Source: an uncultured Spirochaetota bacterium (GTDB lineage: Bacteria; Spirochaetota; Spirochaetia; JAFGXN01). From it: DNA of 64,000 nt. Under the pieces are notes generated by a model, which searched no databases, had not been told where the DNA came from, and saw nothing but the letters and a program-made list of their open reading frames with translations. The position numbers were made by a program, and so were the translations under genes. Location of the stretch: NCBI GenBank assembly GCA_944388995.1, contig CALXKN010000004.1, forward strand, positions 6,394-70,393. Reading direction: 5' to 3'. Below are positions 2,915 to 51,792 of this stretch, piece by piece; position 1 is the stretch's first letter; the number at the start of each line of letters is the position of its first letter.

Positions 2915-3834
2915 ACCGGGCAATTCAGGGATTTCTTCTTTTTATCGCAGTACTCGCTGTTTCGTGCGGAATCGCTCCGCCGAAAGAGATGAAGGCACAG
3001 CTGTTTTTGGATTTTCTTGATACAACGTCCGATGAGATCGTGGATTCGTTCAACGATTTCTCCGCGCTGGATCTATTGAAGCCGTATTGGCTGCCGAATC
3101 CTCTGCTGTGGCATTTTCCGCCGTCTCAAGAAATTCTATTTGAGAAGAGCGCTTTTCCCTCCGAAGAGCTTGACGATTCCGTCATGTTCGCTTTAAATGG
3201 AAATGGTGAAATCGTTTTAAATCGGAATTTTTATTTTACCGCATGGGGGAAAACACTTGTTTACTCGTTCGATAAAATCCGCTGGTTTGCGCTGGACGGC
3301 GATCCGCGGGAGTATGAGGCGTTTGTTCCCGACATTCGTTTCCGGTCGCAGCGCGACGGCGGGCGGCTGCACTTCCGTTTTACGTGGGCTGTACGCGAAG
3401 GAAATTCACCGAAACCGGTGCCGCTGAGGGATGCGGTTGTTTTTTCCGAACGGAAAGAAATTTCTCTCTTGCCGAATCAGGTCTGTTACTCCACCGACAA
3501 AAACGACCGCCCTGTTGATCTGCATTCTCATGTGTTTTTTGTTCCGAACGGAACGAAAGTCGCGTTTAAATGGGATTTTGACTGTAATTTTTTGCAGCTG
3601 CATCAGCTTGACGGCTGCCGCACGGTTTTGAAGCCTCTCAAAGATTTATGGTTTTATCGGAAAAATAGAATTATTTCTCTCGGTTTTGACGGGAAAAATT
3701 ACGGAGATACCTTTTTTAGTTATCGGTTTGCAATGAAACAATCGGTAACAACGGATGATACAGGTTATCCGACCGTTTGTCAACGGATTCTTTTAGTGAA
3801 TAAAAAATTTCCACATATTGATGTTGCCGACTGA
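2911..3834 (+). CDS. hypothetical lipoprotein
   Basis: Signal peptide with lipobox-like LAVSCG; no recognisable catalytic motifs. Confidence 0.45.
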   Translation: MNRAIQGFLLFIAVLAVSCGIAPPKEMKAQLFLDFLDTTSDEIVDSFNDFSALDLLKPYWLPNPLLWHFPPSQEILFEKSAFPSEELDDSVMFALNGNGEIVLNRNFYFTAWGKTLVYSFDKIRWFALDGDPREYEAFVPDIRFRSQRDGGRLHFRFTWAVREGNSPKPVPLRDAVVFSERKEISLLPNQVCYSTDKNDRPVDLHSHVFFVPNGTKVAFKWDFDCNFLQLHQLDGCRTVLKPLKDLWFYRKNRIISLGFDGKNYGDTFFSYRFAMKQSVTTDDTGYPTVCQRILLVNKKFPHIDVAD

Positions 3835-3888: not shown

Positions 3889-5178
3889 ATGAGAGAAATT
3901 AAATGTCCTAAGTGCGGTGAGGTGTTTCAGGCTGATGAAGCCGGATATGCGGCTATTGTCAAACAGGTCAGAGACGAAGAGTTTTCGAGGGAACTCGCGG
4001 CAAAAGAGTCGCAGTTTCAATCCGATAAAGAAAGTGCATTGCGTTTGACCCGCCTCGAAACCGAAAACCGTTTTAAGGATGATTTAAACAGAAAAGACGG
4101 TGAAATCGAGAAATTGAAATCGGAAATTGAAGCCGCGCGATTGGCAGGAAAGGCGACCGTCAGCGAATTGACTGCTGAAAAAGATCGGCGGATCGCCGAC
4201 TTGCAGGGCAAACTTGATGCCCTTTCTAAAGACAAAGAGATTGAAATTCACACTCTTCTCAAAGAAAAAGAACGGGAACTTGCAGAAAAAGAGAGTCGTA
4301 TTCTTTTGCTCAGCGGTGAACAAGAGCTTTTTAAAAAAGAGGTTTTACTGAAAGAACAGTCGTTGAAAGAGCAGTACGAAAATGAATTGAAAAACAAAGA
4401 TGAAGAAATCGAACGGCTGAAAAACTATAAACTGAAGCAGTCGACAAAAATGGTCGGCGAAAGTTTGGAACACCACTGCGAAACGGAGTTCAATCGCCTC
4501 CGTGCAACCGGTTTTCAAAGCGCATACTTTGAAAAGGATAACGACGCCAAACTCGGCAGCAAAGGCGACTACATTTATCGAGATTACGATCAAAACGGAA
4601 CAGAGTTTGTATCGATCATGTTTGAAATGAAAAATGAGGTCGAAACAACAGCGTCGAAAAAGAAAAATACGGACTTTTTAAAGGAATTGGATAAAGACCG
4701 CCGCCAAAAAAATTGCGAATACGCCGTTCTTGTTTCCATGCTGGAGCCGGAAAACGAGTTATACAATACGGGAATAGTCGATGTATCGCACTTATTTGAG
4801 AAGATGTATGTGATTCGGCCGCAGTTTTTTATTCCGATGATTACTTTATTGCGCAATGCAGCGCTTCATTCGCTCGAATATCGTAACGAATTGGCTCTTA
4901 TCAAAGCTCAAAATATCGATATTTCGAATTTTGAAGCGGAAATGAACGACTTTAAGGATAAGTTTTCAAAAAATTTTCGTCTTGCAAGCGAAAAATTCAA
5001 AAAAGCCATTGAAGAAATCGACAAAACAATCGAACATCTGCGGAAAACAAAAGAGGCGTTGCTGTCATCAGAAAATAATTTGCGGTTGGCAAACAGCAAA
5101 GCGGAGGGTTTAACGATTCAGCGGTTGACGCGAAACAATCCGACCATGCAGGCCAAATTCGATGAGTTAAAAAAGTAA
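3889..5178 (+). CDS. DUF2130-family protein: N-terminal zinc ribbon, long coiled coil, C-terminal PD-(D/E)xK-like domain
   Basis: [13 protein letters not shown] (C-x2-C), heptad-rich K/E coiled coil, C-terminal GDYIYRD...FEMK (D...ExK). AGGAG RBS 5 nt before ATG 3889; ORF-track start at 3874 includes the RBS. Confidence 0.6.
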
Positions 5179-46111: not shown

Positions 46112-49100
46112 ATGAAGGAATTTCGTTCGTTTTTGTTTTCGAAAATCAGGAGCTATCCGCCTTACGATGCGCTTCTTTCCGCATTTGCTTACGAAAAATA
46201 TCCGATTCACGTTGACGGATTAAAAGGCTCTTTGATTCCTCTTATATTATCGGAATTATTTTCTATAGGTAAAGCCTCTTTTTTGATAATTCTGCCTTAC
46301 GAAAAAGAGGCTGCTCAGGCCGCCGCCGATTTGCGGGATGCGGGTGTTCCTGCATTTTATTTTCCCGATTCGGGTCATCTGCCGTATTCGGAGAGCCGCC
46401 GCAGTTCGCCGGCAGAGGGTGAACGTTTTGCGCTGCTGCAGCGGTTGGCGTCGGCGCAAAAGTGTATTGTGACCGTATCGCTTCGTTCTTTTTTACAGCC
46501 TGTGACGCCTCCGTCGGTTTTGTCGGCGATGAAGATGACGGTGAAAGTCGGCGGCAGCCTTGATACGCAGGCGCTCGAACGGTTTCTCTCCGACGGCGGT
46601 TACACGCGTACGGTGAGGGTTTCAGCGGCGGGTGAGTTTGCCGTTCGCGGCGAGGTGGTTGATGTATTTCCGCCGGGGCAGAAGGCAGCGGTGCGCATCG
46701 TTGCCGAGTGGGACGTTATCGAGAAAATCCGCCGCTTCGATCCGCTTTCCCAGGAGAGCATTGAAGAAATTTCCGAGGCGGATCTTTATCCGGCTGTCGA
46801 ATGGATTTGGAGCGATGAGCGAATCGACGGATTGGCCTCATTTCTCTCCAAAAAGAGTTATTTGCGGGGGAAATGCGACTTGTTTCTCTCTGATTTGAGG
46901 GAGAAGCGCAGCTGTGCGGCGGAAGAGCAGCTTTACCCGTTGTCGTTTGGGAAACGCGCGTTTTTGAGCGACTATTTAAAGGACAAAGATGCGGCGGTTT
47001 TTGTCAATCCCGAACGGTTCGGGGCGTTGGCGGAAGGTGCGTTTAAAGAACTGAAGGGGCTTTACGCGCGGGCGCGGACTGCCGGTATGGTTGTACCAAC
47101 TCCTGAGGAGTTTTTACAGACTTACGAAGAGGCGGCTGCGCGCTGCAGCAAAACGATTTCGGTTGACTTTATTCCGCAGACAGCGAACCGCGACCGCATT
47201 TCGTTTGACGCCGGCGATTCCCACTCTTACTTCGGTAATATTGCTTATCTGAAGGAAGAGCTCCAAACGCGGGCGGCCGCCGGTTACCGCGTGTTTATTT
47301 TTGCCGGAAATGCGGCGCAAGGCGAACGGCTGCGTTATCTGCTGCGGGACACCGGAGTCGAAGTTTCGGACGGACGGCTGTCGGAAGGTTTTGTGATTCC
47401 GCCGCTGAAGATCCTCTGCATTGCCGAGCACGAAATCTTTGGACGGAAGCGGCGTAAGGTCTCCGTTGTTCGCAACATTCAGACGAAGGTCATCGACAGC
47501 TTTCTCGATTTAAACGAGGGCGATTACGTGGTTCACGTTAACCACGGCGTCGCCGTTTACCGCGGCATTGAGCGGGTTGTTTCGGGTGAGCGGGAACGAG
47601 ACTACATTAAACTTGAGTACGCTCAAAATGAAATTCTCTTCATCCCGACTGAGCAGGTGAACCTCGTTCAGCGTTACCTCGGCGGTGAAGGCAAAACCCC
47701 GTCGCTTGATGTTCTCGGCGGTAAAAGCTGGCAGCACAAAAAGGAGCACGCCCGTAAAAGTGTTGAAGATTTGGCGGACATGCTTTTGGATATTTATTCC
47801 GAACGGGAACAGGCGCGCGGTTACCGTTTCTCTCCGGATACGGAGTGGCAGTCGGATTTCGAAGCGCGTTTTCCTTATGAAGAGACCGAAGATCAGCTGC
47901 GTTCCGTTGCCGAAATTAAGGCTGATATGGAATCAGACAAACCGATGGATCGGCTCTTGTGCGGCGATACCGGCTACGGAAAAACAGAAGTGGCGATGCG
48001 GGCGGCGTTTAAGGCGGCTGTTGACGGCAAGCAGACGGCTCTCATCGCTCCGACGACGATTCTTGCGGGACAACACTACGAAAATTTCGTCAAACGGTTT
48101 GAAGGCTTTCCCGTCCGCATCGAACTGCTTTCCCGCTTTGTCAAAGGAATAAAACAGAAGGAAGTACTGAAGGCGGTCGCCGCCGGCGAGGTTGATATTC
48201 TTATCGGCACCCACCGGTTATTGCAAAAGGATGTCGTTTTTAAAGATCTCGGTTTGCTCATTGTTGATGAAGAGCACCGTTTCGGCGTAAAGGACAAAGA
48301 GCGGCTGAAAACTCTTAAAGCCAACGTCGACGCTTTGGCAATGTCGGCTACACCGATTCCCCGCACTCTCCATATGTCGCTGCTGAAAATTCGTGATATT
48401 TCTCTTATCACAACCTCTCCTTACAACCGCAAGCCGATTGAAACCGTCGTCTGCGCCTTTGACGAGCGGCTGATTCGCAACGCCGTCATGAAAGAGGTCG
48501 AACGGGGCGGGCAGGTCTTTTATCTGCACAACCGCATTGAGAGTCTCGAATCGGTTCGGCTTTTTCTGGAAAAGATTCTCCCCGAAGTGATGATTGAAAC
48601 CGCACACGGCCGCATGAGCGCCGAAGAGCTTGACGAAAAGATGCACCGCTTCATCAATAACAACTTTCAAGTACTGCTCTCTACAACCATTATCGAAAGC
48701 GGCATCGACATTCCCAATGTCAACACCATTATCATCGACCGCGCCGATATGTACGGTATCAGTCAGCTTTACCAGCTTAAAGGGCGTGTCGGCCGCAGCG
48801 ACCGCAGCTCTTACGCATGGCTCTTCTATCCGAAGGAACAACCGCTTTCGGAAGCGGCTGTCAAACGTCTGCAGGTTATTTCCGATTTTGGAGAACTGGG
48901 TTCGGGGTTCCGCATTGCGATGAAAGATATGGAGATTCGCGGTGCCGGCAACCTTCTCGGACGCGAACAGCACGGGGAAATCGCTTCGGTCGGCTACGAA
49001 ATGTACCTCAAACTTCTTGATGACGTCATCGGCGAAAAACAGAATCGTCCCAAACAGGAAGAGGTGTGTCTTGACCTCGAATACTCCGGTTACATTCCCA

Positions 49101-49498
49101 ACGAGTACATCGCCGACAAAAGCGAGAAAATGGCGGTCTACAAACGCATCGCCTCTATTCGCAGCGAAGAAGATTACGATCTTGCGCAAGCCGAAATCGA
49201 CGACCGTTACGGTCCTCTGCCGCCTGCTGTCGCCTCCCTCTTTGCCGTTGCCCGCATCAAGCTGCTCGCCGAAAAACTCGGTATCGTTTCGATTCGCGAA
49301 CGAGGCGGTTTTGCGGACATTGTCTTCGGTAAAATCAGCCTTCTCGACCCCGGCAAAACCGTCCGTCTGATCGCCGAAAATCCGGACTCCGTCATCTACC
49401 GGCCCGAACGCCCTGATACTCTGCGCATCAAAACCGGCACTCTCGAACTGGTTCAAAAGAGCGCTTACCTCGGCGAACGGCTGCAGAACTTACTGTAA
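46112..49498 (+). CDS. mfd: transcription-repair coupling factor
   Basis: Superfamily-2 helicase motifs GDTGYGKTEVAMRAAF (Walker A), DEEHRFG, TRG-motif region; 1128 aa. Confidence 0.9.
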   Translation: MKEFRSFLFSKIRSYPPYDALLSAFAYEKYPIHVDGLKGSLIPLILSELFSIGKASFLIILPYEKEAAQAAADLRDAGVPAFYFPDSGHLPYSESRRSSPAEGERFALLQRLASAQKCIVTVSLRSFLQPVTPPSVLSAMKMTVKVGGSLDTQALERFLSDGGYTRTVRVSAAGEFAVRGEVVDVFPPGQKAAVRIVAEWDVIEKIRRFDPLSQESIEEISEADLYPAVEWIWSDERIDGLASFLSKKSYLRGKCDLFLSDLREKRSCAAEEQLYPLSFGKRAFLSDYLKDKDAAVFVNPERFGALAEGAFKELKGLYARARTAGMVVPTPEEFLQTYEEAAARCSKTISVDFIPQTANRDRISFDAGDSHSYFGNIAYLKEELQTRAAAGYRVFIFAGNAAQGERLRYLLRDTGVEVSDGRLSEGFVIPPLKILCIAEHEIFGRKRRKVSVVRNIQTKVIDSFLDLNEGDYVVHVNHGVAVYRGIERVVSGERERDYIKLEYAQNEILFIPTEQVNLVQRYLGGEGKTPSLDVLGGKSWQHKKEHARKSVEDLADMLLDIYSEREQARGYRFSPDTEWQSDFEARFPYEETEDQLRSVAEIKADMESDKPMDRLLCGDTGYGKTEVAMRAAFKAAVDGKQTALIAPTTILAGQHYENFVKRFEGFPVRIELLSRFVKGIKQKEVLKAVAAGEVDILIGTHRLLQKDVVFKDLGLLIVDEEHRFGVKDKERLKTLKANVDALAMSATPIPRTLHMSLLKIRDISLITTSPYNRKPIETVVCAFDERLIRNAVMKEVERGGQVFYLHNRIESLESVRLFLEKILPEVMIETAHGRMSAEELDEKMHRFINNNFQVLLSTTIIESGIDIPNVNTIIIDRADMYGISQLYQLKGRVGRSDRSSYAWLFYPKEQPLSEAAVKRLQVISDFGELGSGFRIAMKDMEIRGAGNLLGREQHGEIASVGYEMYLKLLDDVIGEKQNRPKQEEVCLDLEYSGYIPNEYIADKSEKMAVYKRIASIRSEEDYDLAQAEIDDRYGPLPPAVASLFAVARIKLLAEKLGIVSIRERGGFADIVFGKISLLDPGKTVRLIAENPDSVIYRPERPDTLRIKTGTLELVQKSAYLGERLQNLL

Positions 49499-49504
49499 AA
49501 TTTT

Positions 49505-49660
49505 TTTTGGGGCGTCCCGGCTTCGCCGTCGGCGCCCTTCGGACTCGGTCTGCCCGCCGATCGGCGGGCAGACGGCCTTACGGCCCCCTCCGGGCGCCTG
49601 ACGCCTTCGGCAGGGCTGCGCCTCCCTGCGCGGTTATTTTAGAAAAACAAATTCAGTTTT
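49505..49660 (+). repeat. GC-rich cluster of perfect stem-loops downstream of mfd (probable terminator / REP-like element)
   Basis: 11-bp perfect stem gtctgcccgcc-GATC-ggcgggcagac at 49548-49573 plus further short GC hairpins; T-rich ttattttag follows at about 49648. Confidence 0.4.
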
Positions 49661-49903
49661 GGCTAATCCAAAAGACCCCCATTAATATTAATGCCGTTTT
49701 TTTCCTTTTTCAGCGGAGCGCCTGCGGAACTCCGGCGCGAGGGATTGAAGCGGAAATGAGCGGCCGACGGAAAGAAGGCGCAGGGCAAAGCGGCAGCTTT
49801 GCCGCGGACGCCGGTAAGGGAGGCCGCGAATTGCAGCGGAAAGCCCGGTGCGCGCCGCAAGCGGCGCGCACGCGCCCGGAAGATAGAGGGAAAAAGGCTG
49901 TGC

Positions 49904-49932
49904 TTGCGCTTTCGGGTGGTTTGGGCTATAAT
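49904..49932 (+). promoter_or_regulatory. sigma70-like promoter (TTGCGC-17-TATAAT) for Hcy-MT/MTHFR gene
   Basis: ttgcgc 49904-49909, 17-nt spacer, tataat 49927-49932, ATG at 49948 (short leader). Confidence 0.4.
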
Positions 49933-49947
49933 GTCGCAGGGGTGCTT

Positions 49948-51792
49948 ATGGATTTAGCGGCTGAGTTGAAGAATCGTGTGTTGATTTTTGACGGAGCGAT
50001 GGGAACGCTTCTTTATGATAAAGGATATTTTTTAAATGCGTGTTACGAGCAGCTGGCTTTGACGGCGCCTGCTGTGATTGAGTCGATTCACCGCGATTAT
50101 TTGAGGGCGGGCGCCGATGTGCTGACCACCGATACTTTCGGAGCCAATCCGCTGCGGTTGGCGGCGTTCGGTTTGGAGGATCGAACCGATGAGATCAATG
50201 AGGCGGCTGTGCGCGCGGCGCGGCGGGCGATTGAGGCTGAGGGAGCGCAGGCGTTTGTGGCCGGCGATATCGGGCCGTGTTCGTTTTTCAGACAGCGAGG
50301 TTCGGCAAAGAAGACGGTTTTGCGTGATGCGTTTCGTCGTCAGGCGGAGGCGCTGGCTCGAGCGGGGGCCGACTTTTTCCTTTTGGAGACCTTTACCCGT
50401 CTTTCGGAGCTGATGACAGCGGCGCAGGCAGCGTCCGAGTTCGGTTTGCCGGTAGCCGCTTCGTTTACGCCTCCCGGGAATACAGGCGCTGCCGACGAGG
50501 TTGACGGCGAGGGCGTGGCTGCTTTTGTTTCTCGTCTTGATAACGAGAAGTGTGTCCAGGCGATTGGGATGAATTGCGGCAGCGGGCCGGCAGCGCTCTT
50601 TTCGGCGGCCGAAATTGCGTTGAAGCATACCCGCAAACCGTTGATTGTGATGCCTAACGCGGGGCTGCCGCGGATGGTGGACGGGCGGCTGATGTATTTG
50701 ACGAATCCCGAATACTTTACCGAGTATGCCAAGCGCTACGCCTCTCTCGGCGTGCGGGGTATCGGCGGCTGCTGCGGGACGACTCCCGATCACATTCGGG
50801 AAGCGGCGGCGGCGCTGAAGCCTCTGCTTCGTACCCGCGTGACGGTGGAGGTGAGTGAAGCCGGAAAGGCGGTTGTTGAGCGGGAGCCGGTTCCGGCGGC
50901 CGAACGGTCTCGGTTGGCTGCCAAGATTTTTGCAGGAGAGAAGGTGACTTCCGTAGAGATGGTTTCTCCCGGAGGCGCTGATTTGACGCCGATGTTGGAA
51001 AAGGTCAAGCTTTGCAGTGAGGCGGGCGTCGATGCGGTCAACATTCCCGACGGACCGCGTGCCAATTCGCGCATATCTCCGATGATTGCGGCGGCGGAAA
51101 TCGAACGGCGTATCGGCATCGAAACGGTGCTCCACTACTGCTGCCGGGACCGTAATCTCATCGGAATTCAAGCCGATTTGTTGGGAGCGGCGGCTGTCGG
51201 GCTGCGCAATCTGCTGCTGATCACCGGAGATCCGCCGAAGCTGGGGAGCTATCCGCAGGCCACCGGTGTTTTTGACATCGATTCGGTCGGTTTGGTGCAG
51301 ACGGTTTCGCATTTAAACAGAGGTGTCGATCCGGCCGGCCGCGTTATCGAGCCGCCGACCGCGTTTTTTGCGGGAGTCGGGCTTAATCCGTGTGCCGTGA
51401 ATCTCGACGCCGAAAAGGAACACTTTCTTGAAAAGGTGAAGGCGGGCGCCGAGTTTTGCATTACTCAGCCGGTATTTGATCCCGAAGCGCTGCTTTCGAT
51501 TATCCGTTGGATGAAAGAGGCAGGCGCGGCGATTCCCGTTATCGCCGGGATTTGGCCGCTGACGGGGTATAAAAACGCCGAATTTATGAAGAACGAGGTG
51601 CCGGGGGTTGTTTTGCCTGACGAATTGTTGCTGAGGATGTCCAAAACCCGCACAAAGGAGGAGGGCCTCAAAGAAGGCGCCGACATTGCCCGCGAAATGA
51701 TAGCGGCTATTCGGGATGATGTAGCGGGAATTCAGGTGAGCGCTCCGTTCGGACGTATCGACATTGCCATCGATGTTTTGGAGGCGTTGTGA
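49948..51792 (+). CDS. bifunctional homocysteine S-methyltransferase / 5,10-methylenetetrahydrofolate reductase (YitJ-like)
   Basis: N-terminal Hcy-binding domain (IFDGAMGTLLYDKGY...DVLTTDTF; GMNCG...GGCCGTTPDHI zinc Cys ligands); C-terminal MetF-like domain. The ORF-track N-terminal extension back to 49507 is a GC-rich run, not coding. Confidence 0.75.
   Translation: MDLAAELKNRVLIFDGAMGTLLYDKGYFLNACYEQLALTAPAVIESIHRDYLRAGADVLTTDTFGANPLRLAAFGLEDRTDEINEAAVRAARRAIEAEGAQAFVAGDIGPCSFFRQRGSAKKTVLRDAFRRQAEALARAGADFFLLETFTRLSELMTAAQAASEFGLPVAASFTPPGNTGAADEVDGEGVAAFVSRLDNEKCVQAIGMNCGSGPAALFSAAEIALKHTRKPLIVMPNAGLPRMVDGRLMYLTNPEYFTEYAKRYASLGVRGIGGCCGTTPDHIREAAAALKPLLRTRVTVEVSEAGKAVVEREPVPAAERSRLAAKIFAGEKVTSVEMVSPGGADLTPMLEKVKLCSEAGVDAVNIPDGPRANSRISPMIAAAEIERRIGIETVLHYCCRDRNLIGIQADLLGAAAVGLRNLLLITGDPPKLGSYPQATGVFDIDSVGLVQTVSHLNRGVDPAGRVIEPPTAFFAGVGLNPCAVNLDAEKEHFLEKVKAGAEFCITQPVFDPEALLSIIRWMKEAGAAIPVIAGIWPLTGYKNAEFMKNEVPGVVLPDELLLRMSKTRTKEEGLKEGADIAREMIAAIRDDVAGIQVSAPFGRIDIAIDVLEAL

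Follow-up and report, generated by a model that had tools for sequence, protein, structure and literature searches.

A probable GC-rich relative of the Flavo-1 RNA motif between mfd and a homocysteine methyltransferase/MTHFR fusion gene of an uncultured spirochaete

Weinberg et al. (2010, PMC2864571) described Flavo-1 (Rfam RF01705) from 239 representatives in Flavobacteria, other Bacteroidetes 'or the related Spirochaetes', and considered it a probable RNA, neither a cis-regulator nor a switch. Its published seed holds a sequence from NC_002967.9 and many sequences of the GCGUKAGGGAU type (PMC2864571, supplement 151), with dozens of copies from Flavobacterium (PMC2864571). The published consensus leaves the GCGUKAGG 5′ flank unpaired, and the alignment ends 7 nt after the hairpin (PMC2864571). 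In Flavobacterium psychrophilum, Flavo-1 matches are found on either the sense or the antisense strand of transcribed regions, and many show no transcription (PMC9723704), a long-read study of Leptospira found unannotated transcripts that matched Flavo-1 (bioRxiv 10.1101/2023.03.29.534852), and one review lists Flavo-1 without a function. Here we analysed a 64-kb stretch of DNA (the window) from an uncultured Spirochaetota bacterium, in which a 449-nt spacer separates mfd from a gene for a 614-residue homocysteine methyltransferase/MTHFR fusion. This spacer carries a 153-nt element that is probably a GC-rich, divergent relative of Flavo-1 with a three-way junction.

Two other kinds of element bear on such a site. 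In Bacillus, yitJ-type genes are under S-box control, and repetitive extragenic palindromic (REP) sequences are lineage-specific and 20-40 nt long. An initial annotation had described the spacer as a GC-rich, hairpin-dense, untranslated region of about 450 nt and proposed a cis-regulator responsive to S-adenosylmethionine (SAM) or folate, with a small RNA or REP-like elements as a fallback. The explanation that we consider likely is a different one: the spacer is a composite of four parts rather than a single leader RNA, and these are, in order, a cluster of polymorphic GC hairpins, an AT-rich stretch that includes an invariant island of 30 nt, the 153-nt element, and the promoter, Shine-Dalgarno (SD) sequence and ATG of the gene (Table 1). 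The element itself would be a gene-independent module of the Flavo-1 type, that is, a protein-binding RNA at a transcript boundary.

The best match in a permissive Rfam scan was Flavo-1 (20.1 bits, E = 0.18, model positions 9-69 of 76). The score is low because of an insertion, with 70 nt in the alignment where the model has 21, and the alignment covers exactly the two invariant motifs, GAUUGAAGCGGAAA and AUUGCAGCGGAAAGC. Window positions 49743-56 and 49831-44 match the Flavo-1 consensus at 29 of 30 positions, and all the predicted pairs form. Two 3x3 loops with a 2-bp helix between them were found (GAU-U-GNA-GC-GNA-AA on the 5′ side; UU-GNA-GC-GGA-AAGC on the 3′ side); Flavo-1 has the same two purine loops, with near-identical conserved letters (GAUUGAAGCGGAAA ... 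AUUGNAGCGGAAAGC). The two also share a GGG/CCC closing helix, a variable apical stem-loop, an intergenic position and the absence of a tie to a gene class. They differ in that the A/U-rich stem of Flavo-1 (AUCCUUUU/AAAAGAU) is replaced in the window by a GC-rich stem opening with tandem G.A pairs, and in that the apical domain is 74 nt long, compared to ~20 nt in the Rfam consensus. In addition, the ends of the window element are closed by an outer helix (P0) and a side hairpin (P4), whereas the published consensus is a single hairpin, and the element is apparently low-copy in this genome (one copy in 64 kb). At gathering thresholds, Rfam 15 gave no matches in the window, Flavo-1 included, and the Flavo-1 match did not appear in any of the whole-window scans; the sub-threshold matches to ncS16, Ysr224, proV, STnc250 and P15 were dismissed as GC-hairpin noise. 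A literature search by motif sequence returned only unrelated primer matches.

Scanning a metagenome collection with the pattern GATTGAAGCGGAAA-N55-85-AGCGGAAAGC yielded 28 loci, against ~0.2 expected by chance by our rough estimate. The same long-gap pattern had no matches in viral contigs, and a shorter-gap pattern matched one viral contig. When 20 of the 28 loci and the viral locus were scanned with Rfam, all 14 matches were to Flavo-1, at 42.5-74 bits. A subset of loci (L039, L040, L043, L044, L048, L049, L053, L055, L056 and L065-L067) has the outer architecture of the window element. In this subset a 5-nt strand (typically GCGUU or GCGUG) precedes A-GG-GAUUG on the 5′ side, and on the 3′ side ...AAAGC-CCG is followed by a hairpin of free sequence, the complementary strand (AACGC or CACGC) and CCAAA. 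L055, L056 and L065 share the flanks of the window element (GCGUKA[AG]G ... CCG/CUG-hairpin-ACGCCCAAA) and score 56.6, 42.5 and 43.2 bits with Flavo-1. Because they combine the same flanks with scores above the Rfam threshold, these three bridge the window element to accepted Flavo-1 members. Both the P0 helix and the P4 arm lie outside the published and Rfam models, though members of the GCGUKAGG type are predicted to close into the three-way junction, and GC-rich relatives are under-scored by the Rfam model because P0 and P4 are omitted from it.

The family is also supported by covariation. Pairing extends to 84.9% of cells in a 15-sequence alignment, compared to 36-46% in controls slid by 1-3 columns, and 14 of 23 pairs change on both sides; none of 500 shuffles reached the observed values, and the window element is in register. 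For P0 (helix 1), three of the five pairs change on both sides across the family. We also built a covariance model, R1, from 12 metagenomic and viral relatives, with no sequence from the window species. On the 64-kb window, R1 gave a single, full-length match on the + strand at 49730-49882 (43.9 bits, E ~4.5e-9). It also matched further copies in metagenomic loci, and gave no matches near orthologous genes in other phyla. The region equivalent to the apical domain is variable in length and sequence across the family. The taxonomic range fits that of Flavo-1 (Bacteroidetes and a few Spirochaetes): the window is spirochaetal, and its locus has 99% protein identity to that of an uncultured Spirochaetes metagenome-assembled genome (L001).

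A fold of the single sequence and RNAalifold on nine strain variants agree on a three-way junction. For the core (49730-49885), the folding energy is -82 kcal/mol (z = -3.9), and none of 200 shuffles was equally good. P0 contains a GC repeat that permits two registers (GGCGC/GCGCC or GCGCG/CGCGC). The long arm (49741-49846) runs through P1a, the two 3x3 purine loops split by a GC/GC step, AAU/AUU, tandem G.A/A.G, P2, the variable blocks and P3. Both strands of its loop region read UUGNAGCGGAAA, which makes a pseudo-twofold-symmetric duplex with two GNA/GNA loops. At the position of P4, relatives have a hairpin of unrelated sequence and 9-45 nt. The element lies 232 nt after mfd, 22 nt before the -35 hexamer of the next gene and 66 nt before its ATG.

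Table 1. Features of the spacer and its borders, in window coordinates.
Feature	Position	Strand	Basis
mfd (transcription-repair coupling factor), upstream neighbour	46112..49498	+	Pfam TRCF, UvrB_inter, CarD_TRCF_RID, DEAD, Helicase_C
GC-rich multi-hairpin block after the mfd stop	49499..49650	+	Folding and strain comparison
AT-rich island AAAAGACCCCCATTAATATTAATGCCGTTT with perfect 14-bp palindrome CATTAATATTAATG (49680-93)	49670..49699		Invariance
U/C-rich tract and degenerate third motif copy (TTTCAGCGGAGCGCC)	49700..49723	+	Repeat search
Flavo-1-type three-way-junction element, 153 nt (putative)	49730..49882	+	Rfam RF01705 sub-threshold match, R1 model, RNAalifold
P0, outer helix closing the element	49734-38 (up to 49739) / 49872-76 (from 49871)	+	RNAalifold, fold, family covariation
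P1a, GGG/CCC	49741-43 / 49844-46	+	RNAalifold and family alignment
Motif 1, GAUUGAAGCGGAAA, 5′ strands of two 3x3 'GNA/GNA' purine internal loops	49743..49756	+	Invariant in all strains
Apical domain, opening with a U-A pair and tandem G.A/A.G mismatches	49757..49830	+	Strain comparison, RNAalifold
P2, GCGGCC/GGCCGC	49760-65 / 49822-27	+	Strain comparison, RNAalifold
Two hypervariable internal-loop blocks of the apical domain	49766-83 and 49804-21	+	Strain comparison
P3, invariant hairpin GGCAAAGC-GGCA-GCUUUGCC	49784-803	+	Strain comparison, RNAalifold
Motif 2, UUGCAGCGGAAAGC, 3′ strands of the same two internal loops	49831..49844	+	Invariant in all strains
P4, side-arm hairpin GUGCGCGCCGC-AA-GCGGCGCGCAC	49848..49871	+	Stem search, RNAalifold
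Predicted sigma-70-type promoter of the methyltransferase/MTHFR gene: -35 TTGCGC (49904-09), 17-nt spacer, -10 TATAAT (49927-32)	49904..49932	+	Read from sequence
Shine-Dalgarno AGGGG (49938-42) and start codon ATG (49948)	49938..49950	+	Read from sequence

All stem substitutions among strains keep the pairing on the + strand. Two are changes from G-C to G-U (in P0 of L025 and at P2 pair 49762:49825), and P2 pair 49765:49822 shows a series of C-G, U-G and U-A. These three or four substitutions point weakly but consistently to + strand RNA as the form of the element. The haplotypes of the apical domain are sharply distinct, the 5′ block differing at 7-8 of 17 positions and the 3′ block at 8 of 15, with invariant surroundings. 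Pairing between the two hypervariable blocks was considered and rejected, as their haplotypes combine freely (A+1, A+2, B+1) and do not covary.

Constraint on the element was assessed with 11 comparator loci that have the same order of mfd, spacer and gene (L001, L025 and L030-L038), which together with the window provide nine distinct spacer sequences. The window and L025 have 93-94% protein identity, but their identity at fourfold-degenerate sites of the flanking genes is only 0.67-0.74, and they are therefore distant enough to reveal constraint. Between these two, the element segments 49724-49806 and 49822-49880 are identical at 139 of 142 positions, and the 15-nt block between them (49807-21) is hypervariable, with an identity of 0.47. 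Identity is 0.56 in the variable stretch 49881-49900, and 0.69-0.75 at 49634-69, approximately the rate at silent sites. With 28% neutral divergence, at most three differences would be seen in 137 sites with a probability of ~7e-16. Conserved and variable blocks alternate every 20-80 nt through the spacer, a pattern that favours selection over a recombination tract. Judged from these comparisons, the element is under strong purifying selection at a fixed chromosomal site.

The spacer does not encode protein. As the initial annotation had stated, it is GC-rich (0.61, compared to 0.51 for the 64-kb window) and untranslated, and it folds better than shuffled sequences (-220.5 kcal/mol, z = -3.2, with one of 100 dinucleotide shuffles equally good). 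It is non-coding because indels of +1, +1 and -4 nt separate close strains. Upstream, the reading frame of the fusion gene is without a stop as far as 49507, and public annotations give the protein 630-678 residues, not 614, by running into the spacer; their N-terminal extensions are those of proteins P0001 and P0122-P0133 (window 49507-49947). Such an extension, or a small open reading frame (ORF; on the minus strand at 49663-49860 and 49710-49871), is ruled out by the frameshifting indels, and the longer gene models are evidently artefacts of a frame that happens to be open through the spacer. The start at ATG 49948 is supported by the S-methyl_trans domain, which begins at residue 12, and by an N-terminus that aligns with orthologues; the gene is a fusion of S-methyl_trans and MTHFR domains (Pfam). 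An exact look-up found no exact record of the window fusion protein.

Elsewhere in the family, the neighbouring genes are diverse: hisA/hisF, TetR/GldC-like, EngB/GltX, a DNA methyltransferase, a radical-SAM enzyme, glycosidases and a candidate phage terminase. Among 29 copies (L039-L067 and the window), 13 have a 3′ neighbour on their own strand and 15 have one on the opposite strand, and about half of the members are not upstream of a same-strand gene. The family is not tied to a gene class, and its orientation is mixed, in agreement with earlier reports (PMC2864571, PMC9723704). Of 22 genes on the 5′ side of an element, 16 are oriented against it. Stop codons at a distance of up to 41 nt were seen 12 times where the 3′ end of the element faces a convergent gene, and twice where its 5′ end follows a co-directional gene. 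These orientation statistics rest on crude gene calls and include some copies from the same genome, and are suggestive. L055 has three copies in 14 kb, L047 has two, and second copies were found in L041, L052 and L060. Several Bacteroidetes copies are separated from the next start codon by a recognisable promoter. Another arrangement of the same module was seen in L042 (4979-5240), a tandem array of 82-nt units with one GGGATTRAAGCGGAAAGC half-motif each. The member in an IMG/VR viral contig (L039, 3720-3816) is of the three-way-junction type and lies 3 nt from the end of a large ORF, which we take to be that of a putative terminase large subunit.

What does this say about regulation of the downstream gene? 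The proposal of a SAM- or folate-responsive cis-regulator did not hold up. The likeness to SAM-I, tetrahydrofolate (THF) and cobalamin riboswitches is one of position only, in that a structured block on the sense strand lies upstream of a homocysteine methyltransferase/MTHFR gene. At Rfam 15 gathering thresholds, the models for SAM-I to SAM-VI, SAM/S-adenosylhomocysteine (SAH), THF and cobalamin riboswitches had no match in the window; at E<=10 there was no riboswitch match in 49300-50150 or in the whole window, and the Rfam riboswitch models had none upstream of orthologous genes. Canonical SAM-I and B12 elements had not been found by eye either, and the scans agree. Unlike these riboswitches, the window block appears to have no expression platform (neither a terminator nor an SD-sequestering helix follows it), its homologues are not linked to methionine genes, and a conserved promoter lies between it and the gene. 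This promoter had been noted before, as a near-consensus sequence ~15 nt before the ATG that complicates a leader model, and the strain comparison bears this out. Its hexamers are invariant, and spacer positions 49916-19 and the flank 49901-02 vary; fixed hexamers around a changing spacer are the usual signature of a working promoter. The orthologues in L002, L003 and L026, which are without the rest of the spacer, still have TATAAT at 15-25 nt from the ATG. Because there is no Rfam match, the neighbours of the family are unrelated, a promoter intervenes and orthologues are without the element, we conclude that it is not a riboswitch for this gene, and that the idea of an element sensing SAM or folate for the gene is not supported. 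A new class of SAM, SAH, methionine or folate riboswitch, or some other cis leader from a distal promoter (in the invariant island, for example), would share the S-box precedent for YitJ-type fusions in Bacillus. It would also fit an element that is on the same strand 66 nt before the ATG, strongly constrained and with no terminator in between, and a U/C tract (49704-11) whose complementarity to GAAAAAGG (49890-97) and to the purine motifs makes alternative pairings conceivable. However, L025 and L032 have lost that tract, L031 shows independent change in its partner, and orthologues at 69-78% identity are without the element, so that with the evidence above we regard such a leader as very improbable.

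Two alternatives place the function in DNA. In one, transcription factors would control the promoter at 49904-32 by binding the palindrome CATTAATATTAATG and the direct repeats TTGNAGCGGAAA, which lie at 49745 and 49831 and have a degenerate third copy at 49710. The repeats are 86 bp apart (~8 helical turns) and upstream of the promoter, and the palindromic island is invariant. However, the stems that lie between and around the repeats covary, so that pairing is selected in addition to the repeat sequences, the same repeats occur in gene contexts with no promoter downstream, and some strains have no third repeat or no island; we give this arrangement almost no weight. In the other, the element is a repeat or relic like REP sequences or miniature inverted-repeat transposable elements, a DNA hairpin (single-stranded or cruciform) recognised by a transposase or recombinase, and any effects on the host are secondary. 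The family does resemble REP sequences and bacterial interspersed mosaic elements in consisting of short intergenic hairpins, with many copies per Bacteroidetes genome, in either orientation and often right after stop codons. Elsewhere it is multi-copy in both orientations (L055, L047, L041, L052, L060 and the Flavobacterium seed), a viral contig has one copy, all copies lie between genes and many of them at 2-40 nt from a stop codon, stem stability has no strand preference, and the spacer around the window element gains and loses whole hairpins. It differs from them in that a 14-nt loop motif is common across phyla and the unit is 80-170 nt long. The same loop sequence across phyla, with stems adapted to host GC, argues for long residence and a conserved partner, and not for a lineage-specific transposase. 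Neither target-site duplications nor terminal repeats can be seen, and the strongly conserved window copy is single in 64 kb, at an orthologous site, with 98% identity where neutral sites have diverged by ~30%. In the published seed, one sequence alone is recognisable as spirochaetal, NC_002967.9, from Treponema denticola. On balance, an origin of this kind seems unlikely. The fallback suggestion of a small RNA or REP-like elements came close to the evidence, with the reservation that REP-like multiplicity is seen for the family elsewhere, and a single copy in the window.

How might a Flavo-1-type RNA module work at this site? The conserved twin loops could be a docking surface for a trans-acting factor, probably a dimeric protein. 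We favour a dimeric, conserved partner because the near-twofold loop duplex is fixed from AT-rich Bacteroidetes to GC-rich soil organisms, while the stems drift with base composition. Transcription of the element would be on the + strand, by read-through from mfd or from a promoter in the invariant island, and its product would act as a stable structured RNA or as a transcript-boundary module just upstream of the next promoter. Paired termini, such as P0 provides, are typical of stable or processed RNAs. We infer from these features that RNA rather than DNA is the active form, that the + strand is used, that a protein is bound and that the role is at a transcript boundary. Binding of CsrA-type proteins to GGA was rejected because the second-loop GGA is not a conserved feature of the published seed, where GGC, GGU and GAC are found at this position (PMC2864571).

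Several observations weigh against this explanation. The Rfam score is far below the curated gathering threshold of 42 bits, so that the sequence falls short of membership by that measure, and it is non-significant alone. The relatives were fished with 24 nt of the window element, which makes agreement in the two motifs circular; among these motif-selected sequences, the independent evidence is limited to P0, P1a, the stem bases, the flanks and the architecture. No terminator lies 3′ of the element, so that read-through into the gene as a long 5′ untranslated region (UTR) is possible, and L032 is without the invariant island, so that a promoter there is not essential. Stem stability across the family favours neither strand (12 compared to 13), and C.A/A.C mismatches (18) outnumber G.U pairs (6) in the family alignment; wobble counts and stem energies were both tried as a means of deciding the active strand, and neither gave a decision. 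The orientation bias might mean that it is the complementary strand that sits in 3′ UTRs. The absence of a strand bias and the placement relative to stop codons make a role at the DNA level or on the opposite strand conceivable. Finally, there is only one copy within the 64-kb window, and REP-like multiplicity in this genome is only putative.

In the GC hairpin block, a U-run (49501-06) pairs with an A-run (49641-46) and encloses nested helices (GGGCGUC/GACGCCU, GGCGCCC/GGGCGCC, a palindromic hairpin at 49548-73 and GGCC-UUAC-GGCC at 49574-85). These are followed by a terminator-like hairpin (49610-29) with UUAUUUU after it. The block has an identity of 0.87 between the window and L025, and strains differ by the gain or loss of entire hairpins: L030 is without 49535-85 (51 nt, including the big palindrome), L025, L031, L036 and L038 have an extra small-hairpin insertion of 9-10 nt, and L032 is without the region from ~49611 to ~49735 (the 3′ part of the block, the island and the U/C tract). 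The sole covariation in the block is in the closing helix of U-run and A-run, with UA-to-CG changes. Strains are mosaics of a few haplotype blocks across 49499-49650, which indicates frequent recombination. This polymorphic cluster would most likely end or stabilise the mfd transcript. The three stems named in the initial annotation are all present in the sequence. The first is the perfect 13+13 palindrome at 49548-49573, which is dispensable because L030 is without it. The second (49848-49858/49861-49871) is the 11-bp stem of P4, with a 2-nt loop. The GCGGCA/TGCCGC stem near 49790-49805 is better drawn as GGCAAAGC (49784-91) with GCUUUGCC (49796-803).

The AT-rich island is identical at 30 of 30 positions in every strain that carries it, is absent from L032, and could be a promoter or operator. 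The U/C tract (49700-23) is deleted in L025 and L032 and variable in L030 and L031, and is therefore dispensable. A helix enclosing the element, formed by CCUUUUUC (49704-11) and GAAAAAGG (49890-97), was rejected, as it is not kept in L025 or L031. A candidate promoter on the minus strand (49665-49636) was likewise dropped, its -10 being destroyed in L025-type strains. With blastn-short, no part of the spacer had repeats elsewhere in the 64-kb window other than self and palindrome matches; an occurrence of TTGAAGCGGAAA at window position 4931 is inside a coding sequence and was taken as a chance match.

In all the same- and near-species loci (L001, L025 and L030-L038), mfd is the upstream neighbour. 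More distant orthologues of the fusion gene (L002 and L003 at 78% identity, L026 at 74%, L027-29 at 69%) have different upstream genes and are all without this spacer, with only TATAAT 15-25 nt before the ATG and an SD sequence in common. Upstream of the L002 orthologue (~3560-3640), we observed tandem repeats of ~20 nt (CAGAAACAAAGTGTTTCA...) and no Flavo-1-like element. In L027 and L028 (690-3940), a split metH-like pair lies directly before the fusion gene, with an S-methyl_trans gene followed by a Pterin_bind/B12-binding/Met_synt_B12 gene; the gap between the pair and the fusion gene is only 60 nt, which suggests that the fusion gene is operonic there and not promoter-proximal.

A wider reading can also be put forward, with little confidence as a whole. 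Flavo-1 may be the Bacteroidetes tip of a broader, multi-phylum family that reaches phages, built on one twin-loop module, with a large subset that forms a three-way junction with paired termini. Its members might be stable, processed, protein-binding RNAs, or a new orientation-biased boundary or terminator element right after stop codons. The single copy captured by this spirochaete, near-invariant upstream of a methionine-cycle promoter, may then regulate that gene or mfd.

For annotation, the spacer should not be labelled as a SAM riboswitch. As a regulator of the fusion gene, the element is ordinary; its value is for a revision and extension of the Flavo-1 family. This motif has been an orphan since 2010, and the window locus indicates that GC-rich relatives escape the Rfam model and that a subset, which includes published seed sequences, would form a three-way junction missing from that model. 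A rebuilt model, together with a single-copy and strongly constrained example, may make the search for a binding partner or function more tractable.

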